Shown here piece by piece: positions 6,213 to 58,692 of a DNA stretch of 64,000 nt (positions within the stretch are counted from its first letter, which is position 1; the number at the start of each line of letters is the position of its first letter). The stretch lies in NCBI GenBank assembly GCA_028286385.1, contig JAQBRQ010000041.1:826-64825 (forward strand). Direction: 5' to 3'. This stretch comes from Candidatus Saccharimonadota bacterium. GTDB lineage: Bacteria > Patescibacteriota > Saccharimonadia > Saccharimonadales > UBA4665. Both the position numbers and the translations under genes were made by a program. The notes below the pieces were generated by a model. That model saw only the letters and a list, made by a program, of their open reading frames with translations. It was not told the origin of the DNA and made no database searches.

Positions 6213-7778
6213 TTAAGGCTTGTACCATCCAGGATATATATCTGTAGCTGGGCTGGGCTCAATATCTCCAAGGCCAACATGATTTGTTAAGACATATGCT
6301 GGCAGGGTCTTGATGCTGGTCGGTTGCTTCCAGTTTTCCGGTGTTTGGCCTAGGTGTGCTGCTTGCATGAGGCCCTGTGTGAGTGGTTTAGTCAGTGTTT
6401 CAACGGAAGCGTTGAGGGGTTTGCTGCGGGCATGGTTGCCAACCCACGAAATCACTGCATACCGGGAGGACCAGCCCGCCATGTTACCCGTGTAGCCATC
6501 ATTTGTTACGCCGGGATCAACCGCAAATTTCCAATTATTGTAACGATGGAATTTGTAGTCGTTAGCACCCGAAGCGCAGTTTGCAGCATCGCAACTGCCT
6601 GGCAAATAACTGGCATTTGGGTCGGACATAATGTCATTGAGTGTGTATGCCGTATCCGGTCTGATAATTTGTTGCCCTGCAGGCTGTCGCCAGTTGGCTT
6701 TAGCTTGGCCATTGAGTCGGACGTTGTAAATCGTTGTCTGCGGGACCTTTGAGCCGTTGTTTGCCAGTGTTGCCAGCACATGCAGCTCATCTGCCAGGGT
6801 TATGAAGGCTCCGTCTCCCAGAGCAGATGCCCCATAGCACTGAGTGGTCTGCGTTAAGGCCTCGTCTGCGTAGCAGTTGAAGCCCTTCTCTGCGCCCATC
6901 CTTCCTACTAATTTCGTGAATCCATTAATAGAATCAAAACGATCGGGGCTTGTATCTTTAGGGTCAGAGTTGAGCATTGCCCTTACTGCGGGTACATTGC
7001 GGCTGCCCCCCAAGGCATACCTGAGCGGCATGGTGCCGGGGTACTTGAAGTCATAATCGAGCAAACAGTTGCCACCTGCTTGCGGCAAGGATTTGTTGGT
7101 GCATGGATAACCAGGCAGCACTTCTTGATTATCGGATAACGCCGTTCCGGCACCCGTATTGGTAGTGTTTTCGATAAGTGCCGCGTAATCGAGGGGCTTG
7201 ATGCTAGACCCTGGCGCAAGAAGCGTAACGGCATAATTAATTTGACCATGATCTTTATCTTTGTAATCAACGCCGCCAACTAGCGCTTTTATCTGGCCGC
7301 TCTGCACGTCCTGCAGGAGTAAGGCTTCCTCATCGGCGGTACCATGAGTGCGACTTGTTATGCTTGGAAGGTTGTCGGCAATAAGTTTTTCGGCAGTTGC
7401 TTGGAGTTTGGCATCGAGCGTCGTGGTTACCGCCCATGCGCCTTGTTCGTAGTAATGATCACCATACTTTGCTCGTAGTTCTGTGCGAACTAGGTCTACA
7501 AAGTAAGGGGCATTTGGTATGTTGGTGCCAGGTTCGACCGCTGGATTTTCGTTGCGCCACAGTACTGTTTTACCATCGCTGTAATACAAGGTTACCAATG
7601 GTTTTACTGATTGCTTATGTGACAGTAGCAGATATAAAGCCAGGCCCGCGATCACTACAAGAATTGCAGCAAGGACTAAGATATAGCGCCGCGTTTTCTT
7701 GGGTGGGGCACTTACGTGCTGCAGAGGGGTTTCGGTTGTTGGCTGTAGAGATTCTGGAGGTTCTTGCGTTGGGTACAT
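6213..7778 (-). CDS. Penicillin-binding protein, transpeptidase domain only (class A-like linker but no GT51 domain)
   Basis: One N-terminal TM helix is followed by the PBP1-type linker APYFVDLVRTEL and TTLDAKLQ. SxxK (PGSSIKPL) and SxN (GGSRNVPAV) are present. The expected KTGTTND box reads DPGVTND. Confidence 0.8.
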   Translation of the reverse strand: MYPTQEPPESLQPTTETPLQHVSAPPKKTRRYILVLAAILVVIAGLALYLLLSHKQSVKPLVTLYYSDGKTVLWRNENPAVEPGTNIPNAPYFVDLVRTELRAKYGDHYYEQGAWAVTTTLDAKLQATAEKLIADNLPSITSRTHGTADEEALLLQDVQSGQIKALVGGVDYKDKDHGQINYAVTLLAPGSSIKPLDYAALIENTTNTGAGTALSDNQEVLPGYPCTNKSLPQAGGNCLLDYDFKYPGTMPLRYALGGSRNVPAVRAMLNSDPKDTSPDRFDSINGFTKLVGRMGAEKGFNCYADEALTQTTQCYGASALGDGAFITLADELHVLATLANNGSKVPQTTIYNVRLNGQAKANWRQPAGQQIIRPDTAYTLNDIMSDPNASYLPGSCDAANCASGANDYKFHRYNNWKFAVDPGVTNDGYTGNMAGWSSRYAVISWVGNHARSKPLNASVETLTKPLTQGLMQAAHLGQTPENWKQPTSIKTLPAYVLTNHVGLGDIEPSPATDIYPGWYKP

Positions 7779-7846
7779 GCTTAGTTATAAAGGTAACTCT
7801 AGGCCTGGTAAAAAGCAAGTGTTCGTTAACGTAAGTCTTGGGGGTT

Positions 7847-7970
7847 ATGGGAATATCGCGCGCCGAGGGCGCACTCCGCCACTGTGGCGTGCTCGATGCA
7901 AGCATCTGTGCGCGTCCTCGCTCTGCAAACCCACCCGCAAGCTTCGCTTGCTCCTCGTGGCTTCGATTCC
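7847..7970 (-). repeat. Copy A of a ~122-nt structured repeat (candidate ncRNA or cis-regulatory leader), lying between the P-loop kinase stop and the PBP start
   Basis: It aligns to copy B. A 13-nt left arm is identical, followed by a 97-nt core with 3 substitutions, with an indel in the spacer. The nested stems (GCGCAC/GTGCGC, CGCCA/TGGCG, GATGC/GCATC, GCAAGC/GCTTGC) are retained, but the closing stem is reduced to 5 bp. Confidence 0.6.
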
Positions 7971-7983
7971 GTAATTGCAGTGC

Positions 7984-8499
7984 TTAATGTAGGCTGAGCT
8001 GTTCAAGTAGCTCATCGACAATATCTGATGGCGGGCGTTCGCCATTAATTGGAGTCGCCCCTTCGTTAATAAATGATCGCTGCTTGGCTTGATGGTTAGT
8101 AAGTATTCTCTCAATCACTCCGGGTAGATGGTGTGAAGCATGCTCATGTGATTCTAGCCTCAGTCGCAAGCTATCTGAGCTTAGTGTTATGACAAATATT
8201 CGATCGAATAAATCATAGAAATCTTTTTGGTTGGACACGACCGCTCCAATGAAGACAACGTCAGCACTATGTAGCAAATTTTCAATTTCTTTTCGCTGCC
8301 AATTCCATGAGTAATTACTCCAGTCGACTTTTCCATCGGGCCAATCAATTGCTTCACCGCTTTTGATATCTTGCAGCTTGGTAGCCTCTGGCAGGTCGTC
8401 TGTGTTATATGCGGCAAAGCCACGCTTCTGTAGCATTTTGATAAGTGTAGTCTTTCCTGAACCTTGGCGACCGGTGATTAGATACTTGCCCATAAACAT
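7984..8499 (-). CDS. P-loop NTPase, small kinase-like AAA family ATPase
   Basis: Walker A motif ITGRQGSGKTTL at the N-terminus. The size (~170 aa) and layout resemble shikimate/adenylate-kinase-like AAA_17/18/33 proteins. Confidence 0.6.
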   Translation of the reverse strand: MFMGKYLITGRQGSGKTTLIKMLQKRGFAAYNTDDLPEATKLQDIKSGEAIDWPDGKVDWSNYSWNWQRKEIENLLHSADVVFIGAVVSNQKDFYDLFDRIFVITLSSDSLRLRLESHEHASHHLPGVIERILTNHQAKQRSFINEGATPINGERPPSDIVDELLEQLSLH

Positions 8500-8523
8500 A
8501 GTTTAGCAAACCAAAAGAGAGCT

Positions 8524-8645
8524 ATGGGAATATCGGCCTGCGCACTCCGCCACTGTGGCGTGCTCGATGCAAGCATCTGTGCGCGTCCTCGCTCTGCGAA
8601 CCCACTCGCAAGCTTCGCTTGCTCTTCGTGGCTTCGTATTCCCAT
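8524..8645 (-). repeat. Copy B of the ~122-nt structured repeat, with an intact 9-bp closing stem, 24 nt upstream of the P-loop kinase start
   Basis: The termini ATGGGAATA...TATTCCCAT pair with each other. The interior folds into a multi-hairpin junction (see findings). Confidence 0.6.
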
Positions 8646-8654
8646 ACTCCGGAA

Positions 8655-8690
8655 ATTAAAAAGACTAGATTCAAATCTAGTCTTTTTAAT
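8655..8690. terminator. Bidirectional intrinsic terminator, 3' of tRNA-His
   Basis: A 16-bp perfect stem ATTAAAAAGACTAGAT-TCAA-ATCTAGTCTTTTTAAT. U-runs are available on both strands. Confidence 0.75.
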
Positions 8691-8691
8691 T

Positions 8692-8769
8692 TGGGGCGAA
8701 CTATGGGAATTGAACCCACGACCTCCGGAACCACAACCCGGCGCTCTAACCAACTGAGCTAAGCCCGCC
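8692..8769 (-). tRNA. tRNA-His (anticodon GTG) with an encoded G-1
   Basis: The reverse complement folds: G-1 plus acceptor GCGGGCT/AGTTCGC, D GCTC/GAGC, anticodon stem CCGGG/TCCGG with loop TTGTGGT, and T arm GTGGG-TTCAATT-CCCAT. Discriminator C pairs with G-1. CCA is encoded. Confidence 0.9.
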
Positions 8770-8773
8770 ATAT

Positions 8774-8789
8774 AACAGAGGTGATTATA
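8774..8789 (-). promoter_or_regulatory. Putative promoter -10 plus conserved leader for tRNA-His (minus strand TATAATCACCTCTGTT)
   Basis: TATAAT lies about 14 nt upstream of the tRNA 5' end, with TTGTAA 17 nt further upstream. An identical 16-mer precedes tRNA-Gly, and a near-identical one precedes tRNA-Pro. Confidence 0.55.
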
Positions 8790-8816
8790 GCTTATATGGC
8801 GAGAGATTACAACTAG

Positions 8817-9212
8817 TTAAGCGGCCCTGGCGGCGCGATTGATCGTGACCAGCCTGGCGATGCCGTAAGCGACGAGAGCGTAAACGGCCATGGCGACTAA
8901 GGTGTATGTCTCGACATGAGAAGCACCATAGCTCATATCGTAGCCAAACAGGCTAAAGAATGGTGCCACAAATGGGTGACTGGCGCCAAAAATAAAGTCG
9001 GCAAATGCATTGGATCGATTAGCGCCAAGAAGGGCTAAAACAAAACGGAAAGCTAATAGCGTCAGCAAGACACCGGCTATGTACCAGACGACTCTCGCGA
9101 CTATGGTTTGACCTGCAGCTTTATTGGCATCGGGACGATCAACTACTTCGCTGGTACGGGCTGTGCGGCCGTCTTCGCTCACTTGTTTGACTTGTTCTAT
9201 GCGTTCAACCAT
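8817..9212 (-). CDS. YggT family membrane protein
   Basis: The block RVVWYIAGVLLTLLAFRFVLALLGANRSNAFADFIFGASHPFVAPF matches the pattern I recall for YggT-family proteins. There is a second TM helix at the C-terminus. Confidence 0.55.
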   Translation of the reverse strand: MVERIEQVKQVSEDGRTARTSEVVDRPDANKAAGQTIVARVVWYIAGVLLTLLAFRFVLALLGANRSNAFADFIFGASHPFVAPFFSLFGYDMSYGASHVETYTLVAMAVYALVAYGIARLVTINRAARAA

Positions 9213-9424
9213 GATGGACTCCTTACGGTAATTGGAATTGGTAAGAAGTACTATAACGCCTACGCTTAGTTATTGCTGTAAGCTAGCTTACTTCAACTGT
9301 CGTAAAAGATCTCTTCGATCTTGCGCAACGGTGATGCAATCATAGCGGTCTTCGTATACTTCACGTGGCTTTAAGTTCACTGTCGTATATTCAATAATAC
9401 AACCTGAATTCAAAGAGTATAGTG

Positions 9425-9453
9425 TTGATCGCCACGGTTTTCACTGATATACT
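9425..9453 (+). promoter_or_regulatory. Putative sigma-70-type promoter of the island operon
   Basis: TTGATC, a 17-nt spacer, then TATACT. GGGAGGGG (Shine-Dalgarno) follows, then the ATG at 9472. Confidence 0.45.
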
Positions 9454-9471
9454 GGGAGGGGCATAAGCATT

Positions 9472-11214
9472 ATGAAAAAAAATACACTTACGGTAATCGA
9501 TTTCTTCTCAGGGGCAGGCGGATTTTCCGAAGGTTTTAGACAACAGGGCTTCAAGATTGTTAAGGGTATCGACCGGTGGGAACCAGCGGTTAAGACACAT
9601 AACCTTAATCATGGCTTGGAAGACACCGTCGAGAACGTACTGGACTATGCAGGCTCAAATTCCTCTGACGTTGAGCGCATTGAAACACTACCTGACGTAG
9701 ACGTTATCATTGGCAGCCCCTCCTGCGTTACATTCTCCATGTCCAATAAAGGTGGTAAGGCTGATAAGACTGAGGGTTTGAGACTCATTGAAGCGTACCT
9801 CAGAGTGATAGCCGTAAAAAAGCATAAGCAAGGTAGCCGTCTTAAGGCCTGGCTTATGGAGAATGTTCCCAATAGTGGCAACTATGTTAAGCACGACTAT
9901 ACTTTCAAAGACTTGAATCTTGAGGATTGGGCATCTGCTAATTCACTGGAGGCTGACTCCGTTGCCTTGACTCTTAACGGAACCGTATTAAATGCGAGTG
10001 ATTATGGTGCGCCGCAGAACCGAAGTCGTTTCATATGCGGTGAAACCATATCAGACGGAAAATTCCCTGCACCCAAGCCTACGACTCATATTAAGCCACT
10101 GCTCAAAGACATAAGATTAAAGATGCCTAAGCCGAGCGATGTACGCCCCAAGGGATCATACGAGGACCCTAACTACCCAGGCCTTATTATTGAAGCAAAG
10201 CAGATTAGCGACCACTTCTACGACACTGGGCTATATGTAACTCAATGGGAGCAATCAAAGTACCTTAAGACGATGCATCCTTTTATGGGTAGAATGTCAT
10301 TTCCTGAAGCGGATGAGAACAGCTCGCGGACGGTTACTGCTACACGATCTATAAGTAGCCGCGAGTCTTTGATCTATAAATCAGAATACGATAGAACCGG
10401 GCATGGCGAATACAGGACCCCAACCATACGCGAAGCTGCTTCGCTCATGGGTTACCCGTACACCTATCAGTTTTTCGGATCAGAGGGCGTGAAATGGAAG
10501 CTTATTGGAAATAGCGTTAGCCCTCACCTTAGCTCGGCTTTGGCATCGGCAATGCTTGTAAAGGAAGGCCGTAAACCGGTTGCCGTAAAAAACATACCTT
10601 TCGAAGAACAGAAAGAACTGTACCTCTCAGTTGATAACCTCAACACTTTCTCGCCTATAAAGTTCGACCAGCGAAAACTTAGAAAACCAGGTGCGAAGTT
10701 CAGACGATCAGTATACAAGGGCCAAAATATGACTGTTGACTTGCTGAACTATAATCCGAGCACAAATGATACGGCGGGCATAAAATGGTATGTGGGTACG
10801 TTTTATGGAACGGGCAGCGACCACAAGTATGATGTGCTAAAAAAAGGCCAGTACTCAAAACTTGCAAAGGTGCTTGGTGACAACTTTGATCTCTTTGATG
10901 AGTTTCGTACTGAGTTGGAGAAATTTACGGGCAATACTTCAATGAACGCTCGTACTCTTCAGCAGGCATACGAAACGGACTCAGATTTAGCGGATAAGCA
11001 AAATCCACTGGTTATTATCGAGCGTATCCGGCAGCTTACGAATAAGTACGGCGCTCTACAGCCCGACCTCAGGCTTGAACTAAGCGGGATGCATAAGCAA
11101 AACTTCTTATTTGGGCAACTCCTCTGCTTGTTCTCACTAGGCCATATCGTATACAATAATTTGGTAAGTGAACCAAGAGTCGTAAGTGAAAATTCTTTGG
11201 CTTTTGGAATATAA
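9472..11214 (+). CDS. DNA (cytosine-5)-methyltransferase with a ~215-aa C-terminal extension
   Basis: All the diagnostic C5-MTase motifs are present: I DFFSGAGGFSEGF, IV GSPSCVTFS (catalytic Cys), VI LMENV, VIII QNRSRF, IX REAASLMGYP and X IGNSVSP. Confidence 0.9.
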   Translation: MKKNTLTVIDFFSGAGGFSEGFRQQGFKIVKGIDRWEPAVKTHNLNHGLEDTVENVLDYAGSNSSDVERIETLPDVDVIIGSPSCVTFSMSNKGGKADKTEGLRLIEAYLRVIAVKKHKQGSRLKAWLMENVPNSGNYVKHDYTFKDLNLEDWASANSLEADSVALTLNGTVLNASDYGAPQNRSRFICGETISDGKFPAPKPTTHIKPLLKDIRLKMPKPSDVRPKGSYEDPNYPGLIIEAKQISDHFYDTGLYVTQWEQSKYLKTMHPFMGRMSFPEADENSSRTVTATRSISSRESLIYKSEYDRTGHGEYRTPTIREAASLMGYPYTYQFFGSEGVKWKLIGNSVSPHLSSALASAMLVKEGRKPVAVKNIPFEEQKELYLSVDNLNTFSPIKFDQRKLRKPGAKFRRSVYKGQNMTVDLLNYNPSTNDTAGIKWYVGTFYGTGSDHKYDVLKKGQYSKLAKVLGDNFDLFDEFRTELEKFTGNTSMNARTLQQAYETDSDLADKQNPLVIIERIRQLTNKYGALQPDLRLELSGMHKQNFLFGQLLCLFSLGHIVYNNLVSEPRVVSENSLAFGI

Positions 11215-58484: not shown

Positions 58485-58559
58485 GGTCCCATCGTCTAAC
58501 GGTTAGGACACCGGGTTTTCATCCCGGCAATAGGAGTTCGATTCTCCTTGGGATCACCA
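58485..58559 (+). tRNA. tRNA-Glu (anticodon TTC)
   Basis: Acceptor GGTCCCA/TGGGATC, D GTCT/GGAC, anticodon stem CCGGG/CCCGG with loop TTTTCAT, T arm AGGAG-TTCGATT-CTCCT, encoded CCA. Confidence 0.9.
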
Positions 58560-58561
58560 AG

Positions 58562-58593
58562 AAAAAAGACCTACAGCAATGTAGGTCTTTTTT
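58562..58593 (+). terminator. Intrinsic terminator after tRNA-Glu
   Basis: AAAAAAGACCTAC-AGCAAT-GTAGGTCTTTTTT. Confidence 0.8.
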
Positions 58594-58692
58594 CTTGCTC
58601 AAGGGGGAGCGAACTCCATCAGAGCAGGTGCATATCGTGAAGCGAGATATTCTCCGGAACCGGTTTTAGGTTAGGCCAAATCACGACGTGTG

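Follow-up and report, generated by a model that had tools for sequence, protein, structure and literature searches.

Hairpin-bearing repeats behind tRNA genes in Saccharimonadales, a possible undescribed kind of mobile or recombination-prone DNA

Two near-identical structured elements flank a small kinase-like gene beside tRNA-His in a genome of Candidatus Saccharimonadota, and the question raised by this locus is whether they act as RNAs on the neighbouring genes or belong to some other class of sequence. The locus lies in a 64,000-nucleotide (nt) stretch of contig JAQBRQ010000041.1 (assembly GCA_028286385.1, positions 826 to 64,825), hereafter the window, the whole stretch of DNA that was analysed. 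A first-pass annotation had described copy A (7847-7970) and copy B (8524-8645) as multi-helix elements, perhaps functional as minus-strand RNAs, which would form the 5′ leaders of the genes behind them. The answer favoured here, to which we give an even chance, is that both are copies of a non-coding, non-autonomous DNA module at the 3′ ends of tRNA genes in Saccharimonadales. Such elements look like an undescribed kind of mobile or recombination-prone DNA, and not like a gene switch. This reading is based on their linkage to tRNA genes, on a repeat derived from the target, on gain, loss and decay among relatives, on tandem copies, on the presence of the same core at different tRNAs and on the bracketing of cargo genes.

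The survey covered the genome of the window (G000; 832 kb in 48 contigs, the window being on contig C21), its sister genome (G001) and further relatives, G000 to G040 in all. An iterated nhmmer search of the own genome found 11 full copies and one fragment of a family termed fam1, 70-82% alike and all intergenic, so that A and B are no private pair. A tRNA gene lies upstream of 10 of these 11 copies, the units being found behind Asn, Tyr, Asp, His, Leu-CAA, Val-TAC (a partial unit), Leu-CAG, Glu-CTC, Leu-TAG and Ser-GCT. When printed in the sense of the window plus strand (E+), all own copies but A have CCAAAUAAAAA-hairpin-UUUUUAUUUGG on their 3′ side and, beyond it, a tRNA gene in reverse complement, and the order on the tRNA strand is therefore tRNA, terminator and unit, the usual position of a copy being 40-110 nt behind the tRNA gene and its terminator. 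A second core family, fam2, was seen on own contigs C28 (11471-11545), C32 (2282-2358) and C44 (50-126), behind tRNA-Gln, tRNA-Lys(UUU) and tRNA-Arg(GCG). Its core (GCGTAGCGAC, hairpin, GCGGAGAAGCGACGAG, hairpin, CGAGGGAAGCGCT) has the same T-loop position and architecture as that of fam1, each unit carries a tRNA-end repeat of 14-18 nt, and a second terminator follows the Gln and Lys units. With both families, about 14 of the 37 tRNA genes detected in this genome by ARAGORN carry units.

A BLAST search with the 73-nt consensus of the fam1 core was extended to 41 genomes sharing this family and order (0-11 copies each). The core is present in 17 of them and in none of the other 24, with 88-97% identity to the consensus across genera and a tRNA upstream of 24 out of 31 core matches in relatives. 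Counted by related genera, 16 of 40 have it, and all belong to Saccharimonadales. In an even sample of the phylum (401 genomes) the core occurs in four, which again come from that order. Scanning named genomes for the exact pattern yielded at least 120 loci, of which 91, among the matches listed, have the canonical 12-nt hairpin tip. Almost all of these are labelled as Candidatus Saccharibacteria or as metagenome-assembled genomes of Saccharimonadales; a few have other or unclassified bin labels, including three in a 'Pristimantibacillus' bin, which are possibly mis-binned contigs. Among the same listed matches, a tRNA on the same strand lies within 260 nt upstream in 68 of the 91 and seven more are at the locus edge, the tRNA-to-core distance is 78-118 nt in the 68 loci, and more than 20 tRNA identities carry the fam1 core. 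A full-text literature search found no publication on the family, and a permissive cmscan of seven loci with consensus-like copies against Rfam 15 (E <= 1) returned only tRNAs and chance miRNA matches on the terminator hairpins.

On the tRNA strand, a unit starts with the tRNA terminator, behind which the T arm and acceptor 3′ strand recur as an inverted, degenerate copy. Then come a hairpin, P2, with the base CGAACC/GGTTCG, a core of 55-90 nt with two conserved hairpins, P3 and P4 (consensus GTGGAGCGAGGACGCGCGCAGG-loop-CCGAGCACGCCGCAGCGGAAAAGGGCGAAGCCCGCT), and a direct repeat in which tRNA positions 58-60 to 76 return, up to the CCA; a second terminator often comes next. The direct repeat matches the local tRNA in every case. 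Of 73 units, 58 have its start at T-loop positions 58-60, at a distance of 17-19 nt from the tRNA 3′ end, and 46 have its stop at the CCA, give or take chance A's; these boundaries thus put the core at T-loop position 58 of a partial tRNA 3′ copy. At tRNA-Leu(UAG) the repeat is perfect over 18 nt, at tRNA-His of the window it has decayed to ATTCCCATAG plus mismatches, and in relatives it is often perfect, CCA included, with the second terminator after it. To the left of the core, the tRNA match is of at most 8 nt in 55 of 69 units, essentially the generic GGTTCG, and the inverted arm is mostly degenerate. Among 246 tRNAs scanned in the collected loci, 100 have a repeat of their own 3′ end 40-330 nt downstream; 71 of these belong to fam1 and 3 to fam2, and among the others are several further core families that share this layout and have similar core ends (5′ GYGNAGCGA and 3′ GCG(C/A)TA). 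A different arrangement was noted at L087:240-410 (DASZPJ010000005), where a 5′ partial tRNA-Met copy carries a minimal core (TTCGAGGACGCG...GCAAGAATA) in its anticodon loop. This partial copy has its own promoter-like sequence and lies directly upstream of the intact tRNA-Met, behind which there is a normal T-loop-type unit.

Comparison of orthologous loci shows that units are gained, lost, truncated and tandemly multiplied, and that pairs of them bracket foreign genes of low guanine-plus-cytosine (GC) content. At tRNA-His, across about 30 relatives, the fam1 unit is present only in G000, G001 and G006, with a variant in G015 and a different core in G025, and in the remaining relatives the terminator is directly followed by the next gene. 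A metagenome contig (Ga0105028_100460; L299:2061-2150) has, directly behind tRNA-His and its terminator, an 18-nt stretch that still matches the tRNA end at 15 positions, a decayed repeat with no core, and the repeat can therefore exist without a core; the next flank carries a promoter-like TTTGCTAWACTAT, as in the window. A sortase-like gene and an HTH-MurA fusion lie further on in that contig. Between the two sister genomes, the Leu-CAG unit of G001 is cut after the first half of P2, the Val-TAC unit lacks P3 in the own genome and is whole in G001, and the fam2 unit behind tRNA-Gln is present in the own genome and missing in G001. Several contigs of G001 end 46-49 nt past a tRNA, and the units evidently break short-read assemblies right after tRNA genes. 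In that assembly, contigs C6, C26, C35, C50 and C47/C60 break off at a tRNA gene or no more than about 50 nt behind it, and tRNA-His is split between two contigs at T-loop position 57.

Tandem multiplication is clearest in L081 (CAWCZQ010000005, about 6570-7000), where three identical 157-nt units, each made of repeat, terminator, inverted arm, P2 and core, stand behind tRNA-Ala(GGC); L128 and L145 show mixed-family tandems, with two different units in a row. In one genome, near-identical P2 and core sequences occur at tRNA-Met and at tRNA-Arg(CCU), each with a perfect repeat of its own tRNA and with unrelated terminators, and the block homologous between the two loci is therefore only that from CGAACC to the core end, that is, P2 plus core. 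The perfection of the repeat is weakly related to the similarity of the core to the consensus (rho 0.40, p 0.03, n=29) in an unbiased set, and no relation was seen in the full set. An exact 26-mer from the PBP start, searched in metagenome contigs for an empty site from the same population, gave no match.

Three cases of unit-cargo-unit were found, and most units bound no gene. In the window, the cargo is the gene between A and B (7984-8499, minus strand), an open reading frame for a 171-amino-acid P-loop NTPase assigned by Pfam as AAA_18-like, of the 'broad-specificity NMP kinase' family; its GC content, 43.8%, is below the 50% of the genome. Members of this kinase family are common among candidate-phyla bacteria, in varying contexts: in two Logan contigs, an 80%-identical kinase comes straight after a His-type unit that has a 16-nt repeat, the junction being the same, and an 87%-identical copy has no unit. 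The second case, on own contig C2 (5285-10160), is a 5-kb islet of 41.6% GC between the tRNA-Asn unit and a second Asn-type unit, which has only a tRNA-end remnant and a terminator ahead of it. This islet looks like a small defence or accessory islet; besides a HEPN_AbiU2 protein and a weak HIT-like protein, it encodes three proteins for which Pfam gives no match. In the third case (L041:4444-7548, UBA5145), three membrane-protein genes, on 3 kb of DNA, lie between two units whose repeats and flanks are identical, about 140 nt being the same in both units (3′ part of the core, repeat and flank). The P3 tips of these two units are two perfectly compensatory pairs apart (GGAG...CUCC versus GAUG...CAUC), a difference that seems too neat for random mutation and that may come from a recombination mosaic.

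Seen against this background, both copies in the window are present and near-identical where the first-pass annotation placed them: a 13-nt arm (TATGGGAATATCG) common to both is followed by a spacer indel and by a core of about 97 nt with three substitutions. The fold drawn for copy B was reproduced, with a closing stem of 9-10 bp and a multi-helix junction in which the helix CGAAGCCAC/GTGGGTTCG has the hairpin GCAAGC-GAA-GCTTGC on top and a GCGCAC/GUGCGC helix stands over two small hairpins. Folding z-scores for copy B are -3.7 on the plus strand and -4.2 on the minus strand, with none of 200 shuffles folding equally well, and for copy A on its own the folding is not significant against shuffles (-0.5 and -1.35 on the two strands). 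The description of the element as strongly structured and repeated is borne out by these scores for B, by the many further copies and by the covarying helices, and a permissive cmscan of window positions 7000-9500 with Rfam 15 gave no match to the element at E <= 10. The closing stem, taken before as part of the element, is really tRNA-His sequence: its plus-strand 5′ arm CTATGGGAAT (8522-8531) is the reverse complement of the T-loop/T-stem 3′ sequence of tRNA-His, and its 3′ arm is a degenerate copy of the T arm. As for the GCGCAC/GTGCGC helix with its two hairpins, it is specific to A and B, the fold conserved at the family level being one long imperfect hairpin (P3) and a small one (P4).

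In terms of the unit anatomy, sequence, alignment and fold delimit unit B, the resident fam1 unit behind tRNA-His, at 8524-8650. Three parts follow one another on the minus strand (tRNA sense): 8628-8650 is a degenerate copy, inverted, of the tRNA-His 3′ end, 8597-8636 the P2 hairpin CGAAGCCAC...GTGGGTTCG, and 8532-8596 the core with P3 and a damaged P4. Its direct repeat of the tRNA-His 3′ end, recognised by sequence comparison at 8522-8531 (ATTCCCATAG on the minus strand), is the beginning of a decayed copy of tRNA-His positions 58-76 in which 13 of 19 positions match; in the sister genome (L028) its homologue is an exact 17-nt copy, and L295 has a homologue of 16 nt. Unit A, the second copy (7847-7970, by alignment and fold), has no tRNA, no terminator and lacks most of the inverted arm. 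Its homology with B begins within the inverted arm (GGAAT(A)CGAAGCCAC) and stops in the direct repeat, a remnant of which (ATTCCCATAA on the minus strand, 7845-7854) is followed by the leader of the PBP gene. The P4 of unit A is of the GCGCC-NNN-GGCGC type, common to the Leu-CAA unit.

The helices of the family covary, as shown with a set of 30 copies found by similarity and not by pattern. Under the P3/P4 model, 76.9% of cells are paired versus 65.8 +/- 0.8% in shuffles, double changes occur at 14 pairs, and the covariation score is 0.314 versus 0.145 +/- 0.011 for shuffled sets, with 0 of 500 shuffles as high and slid controls far lower. The proposal that the minus strand is the functional RNA had been drawn from a G.U reading of one substitution, which falls in P2, and the family gives it no support: the preferred strand differs from helix to helix, being plus for P3, minus for P2 and neither for P4. 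Three pyrimidine-pyrimidine mismatches are conserved in P3, together with two G.T/G.U positions that pair on the plus strand only; for P2, 31 of 40 informative cases are more stable as minus strand, P4 has no bias either way, and for whole units the minus-strand fold is slightly the better one. Since the helices disagree, no single strand is favoured, and the idea of one functional strand deduced from G.U counts was rejected. A consensus promoter scan found no promoter-like site upstream on the plus strand, the only nearby one being the tRNA-His promoter on the minus strand, which also speaks against copy B as a stand-alone plus-strand small RNA (sRNA). The first-pass annotation had itself named a selfish repeat at random intergenic positions as a finding that would overturn it. 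Many copies, with the behaviour of selfish or dispensable DNA, were indeed found, but the positions are not random, the orientation to the tRNA is always the same and the helices covary.

If A and B belong to a DNA module, this would spread or recombine as DNA at the T-loop-to-CCA segment of tRNA genes, where tyrosine-integrase islands also insert, and the tRNA-end repeat would be an att-like (attachment-site) or target-duplication product. As for the covarying hairpins, their role would be that of folded single-stranded or cruciform DNA, and not of a trans-acting RNA. The window could then be regarded as a resident unit B behind tRNA-His plus a captured or duplicated segment of cargo and unit (the kinase and A), the capture of the kinase-like gene having possibly duplicated the unit to give the order unit B, cargo, unit A.

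Several results weigh against such a module, starting with the enzyme that would move it. No autonomous partner was found: in 40 of the 41 genomes, PF00589 detects exactly one conserved Xer-like gene (about 310 amino acids, E about 1e-45), which is not next to units and is there in genomes with or without them, and all-against-all clustering of the 535 open reading frames within 2.5 kb of units gave no enriched family and no recombinase cluster. The absence from the own genome of RVT_1 (lacking also in most carriers among the 41 relatives) and of Y1_Tnp (PF01797, lacking in the unit carriers G000, G001, G006 and G012) counts in the same sense, as do the searches for a carrier, the strict core pattern having 0 matches in IMG/VR, a looser one 13, all chance matches in coding DNA, and the core no match among PLSDB plasmids. 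Moreover, the inverted arm resembling the local tRNA is not explained by a simple transposon, and selection for function would also fit the 88-97% core identity and the half of direct repeats that are near-perfect. The tree of 97 cores, with too few columns, is unresolved and its clustering is weak (65 changes of tRNA amino acid versus 73.4 +/- 2.2, and 82 of genome versus 85.1 +/- 1.4). Because no enzyme was found, the inverted arm resembles a tRNA and P3 is highly conserved, a functional tRNA-matched RNA or a recombination site acting as a folded single strand stays in play.

Among specific partners, a dedicated integrase was rejected, with only one conserved Xer-like recombinase per genome in 40 of the 41, and so was an IS200/IS605 or RAYT partner, Y1_Tnp being absent from the own genome and unlinked where present. 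This domain occurs in 7 of the 41 genomes as a solitary 204-amino-acid gene with no linkage to units or tRNAs; G036 has six copies of this Y1_Tnp-like gene. A phage or plasmid as carrier was likewise rejected on the IMG/VR and PLSDB searches. A more elaborate proposal, which we hold only tentatively and as a whole consider improbable, is that of an undescribed, integrase-less system of gene capture and insertion anchored on tRNA 3′ ends in Saccharimonadales. In it, the conserved hairpin scaffold and the sense and antisense copies of T arm and acceptor strand of the local tRNA, folded as a single strand of DNA or RNA, would imitate the T-arm duplex of the tRNA gene, the scaffold protruding at nucleotide 58, and a host enzyme, such as the single Xer-like recombinase, would insert bare units and gene cassettes (the kinase) in an integron-like manner, through a self-matching, re-targetable site.

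With regard to other explanations, the units could be functional tRNA-matched non-coding RNAs in which the P2-P4 scaffold lies between antisense and sense copies of the 3′ half of the cognate tRNA, with a role as guide, sponge, processing element or decoy for that tRNA or its gene, made as a 3′ trailer or as an opposite-strand transcript. This possibility, which we regard as rather unlikely, gains from the compensatory changes that keep the helices, including the two pairs by which the L041 P3 tips differ in an otherwise identical 140 nt, from the core being 88-97% identical across genera, from arms that always match the neighbouring tRNA in a fixed orientation to it, and from the two G.T/G.U positions of P3 readable on the plus strand only. 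It has to contend with the lack of units at most orthologous tRNAs and in 24 of 41 relatives, and with truncations and internal deletions in sister genomes that remove even the most conserved hairpin; the strand preference differs between helices, most inverted and left arms are degenerate or generic, the promoter scan gave nothing on the plus strand near the locus, and identical tandem triplets and cargo bracketing are better explained by DNA dynamics. The narrower proposal of a cis-regulatory 5′ leader or riboswitch for the minus-strand genes, or of copy B as a plus-strand sRNA, is scarcely credible. On the minus strand B does precede the kinase and A the PBP gene, and the 80%-identical kinase is likewise preceded by a unit, but across about 100 copies the constant neighbour is the upstream tRNA with its terminator, and the genes downstream are unrelated, often convergent or absent, so that the copies do not consistently precede particular gene families. 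Neither a plus-strand promoter near the locus nor a match to an Rfam riboswitch was found.

Ordinary attL/attR scars, left when integrase-bearing phages or islands inserted in T loops were later deleted and only a tRNA 3′ fragment and an island end stayed behind, are a quite improbable origin of the units. A direct repeat from T loop to CCA is what tyrosine integrases with T-loop att sites produce (PMC1762012, PMC4383910), the cargo between repeats is of low GC, and the minimal core in the anticodon loop of the partial tRNA-Met occupies the other classical sublocation; yet the genomes have no integrase beyond the one conserved Xer-like gene, the unit size is uniform (tRNA-to-core 78-118 nt in the 68 loci among the matches listed), the same core stands at more than 20 different tRNAs and on no viral contig (IMG/VR) or plasmid (PLSDB) searched, and identical 157-nt tandem units come without island remnants. 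Much the same boundaries could be expected from retro-copies, in which a reverse transcriptase would have copied the mature tRNA from the CCA to a block at a modified A58, the cDNA being built in with the core. The repeat does run from about position 59, the classical stop before m1A58, to the mature 3′ end (CCA), and the terminator just ahead of the inverted copy has a U-run able to fold back onto its A-run in the manner of a self-primer. RVT_1, however, is missing from the own genome and most carriers, the m1A58 methyltransferase TrmI (PF08704) is absent from all 41 genomes, and integrase-type att sites give the same repeat boundaries. With reverse transcriptase and TrmI absent, a cDNA stopped at m1A58 is largely refuted; this origin was rejected, and we consider retro-copies very improbable. 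A non-autonomous DNA module stays as the reading preferred here.

The remaining features of the locus agree with the first-pass annotation, since tRNA-His on the minus strand, the terminator hairpin, the kinase between A and B and a PBP gene beyond A were all found. The anchor of the locus is tRNA-His(GTG) (8692-8768, minus strand; ARAGORN, and 63 bits with the Rfam tRNA model), with a promoter-like TTGTAA-17-TATAAT at 8812-8784 on the same strand in the consensus promoter scan. It is followed by the terminator hairpin term1, recognised by sequence at 8653-8691 and flanked by an A-run and a U-run, whose palindrome reaches further, UGG pairing with the CCA of tRNA-His. Across the genome, tRNA terminators (including window 8653-8694) are long A-run/U-run palindromes with a right arm that ends in UGG opposite the encoded CCA and that often runs on into the complement of the acceptor strand, and this hairpin is a genome-wide feature, since many unit-free tRNAs carry the same kind. 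To the left of unit A lies the open reading frame of the PBP-like gene (6213-7778, minus strand). Elsewhere in the window, tRNA-Glu(UUC) (58485-58559, plus strand) is followed, past its terminator, by an inverted T-arm copy (CTCAAGGGGGAGCGAACTCC) within 58560-58680, and about 30 nt past this arm by ATTCTCC, a short repeat of the tRNA-Glu T-loop/T-stem. This region looks like a strongly decayed or core-less unit, and a homologous remnant was observed in the sister genome.

Saccharibacteria have tiny, streamlined genomes with few recognised mobile elements. Pairs of units in these genomes mark entry points of foreign, partly defence-type genes, and if the units are recombination sites, they would explain the exchange of accessory genes without integrases in these epibionts and would represent a new type of target-matched insertion site. 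In any case, they can be mistaken in genome annotation for structured RNA genes or for phage att scars.

A last question to be considered is how these units relate to known systems. Islands moved by tyrosine integrases restore the split gene, and a displaced fragment marks their far end (PMC4383910), and mycobacteriophage Ms6 uses a T-loop attB at tRNA-Ala (PMC1762012). The att duplications of these elements (Ms6, the Islander catalogue) resemble the units in the intact tRNA, the inserted DNA and the displaced T-loop-to-CCA repeat, which here runs from the loop crossover site to the gene end (58 of 73 starts, 46 of 73 ends), as well as in the foreign low-GC genes between repeats and, in one unit, in the anticodon loop as second sublocation. 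The units differ in that no integrase was found beside the insert or dedicated in the genome (PF00589 in 41 genomes; 535 neighbouring open reading frames), in an insert of usually only about 140-160 nt, in one hairpin core at more than 20 tRNAs, in an extra inverted tRNA-end copy and in a core not seen on the phages and plasmids searched. Integron cassettes likewise have structured sites of about 60-140 nt, variable in sequence but conserved in fold, with imperfect hairpins in which mismatches are conserved. These sites bound single genes or small sets that gather at one chromosomal anchor, an arrangement of which the three unit-cargo-unit cases may be a counterpart; in the units, however, there is no IntI-type integrase next to the array, the anchor is the tRNA 3′ end and most carry no gene. 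The R''/R' GTTRRRY boxes are absent by alignment inspection, the unit ends being GGTTCG^G... and ...GCT(A)^RTCC (with the boundary at the caret), and no second tyrosine recombinase that could be an IntI with its attI was found with PF00589 in the 41 genomes.

In the case of miniature hairpin repeats (REP/BIME-RAYT, IS200/IS605 PATEs, Correia, RPE and MITE-like elements), the likeness lies in short, non-coding, multi-copy sequences with hairpins and compensatory changes, patchy copy numbers between relatives and decay by deletion. The units depart from them by standing strictly behind tRNA genes in one orientation, with arms taken from the local target, no Y1 transposase in the carrier genome and none of the usual terminal inverted repeats. 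Finally, the 178-bp repeats of the Escherichia coli tyrT operon, which correspond to RtT RNA (RF00391), each contain a copy of the last 19 nt or so of the tRNA. As in the units, they are repeated directly behind a tRNA gene together with a copy of its end, and a cmscan of window 7000-9500 and seven loci gave no sequence or structure match between RF00391 and the units. The RtT repeats belong to one enterobacterial operon, whereas the units described here form a family that is found at many tRNAs and has a distinct core at the T-loop position.

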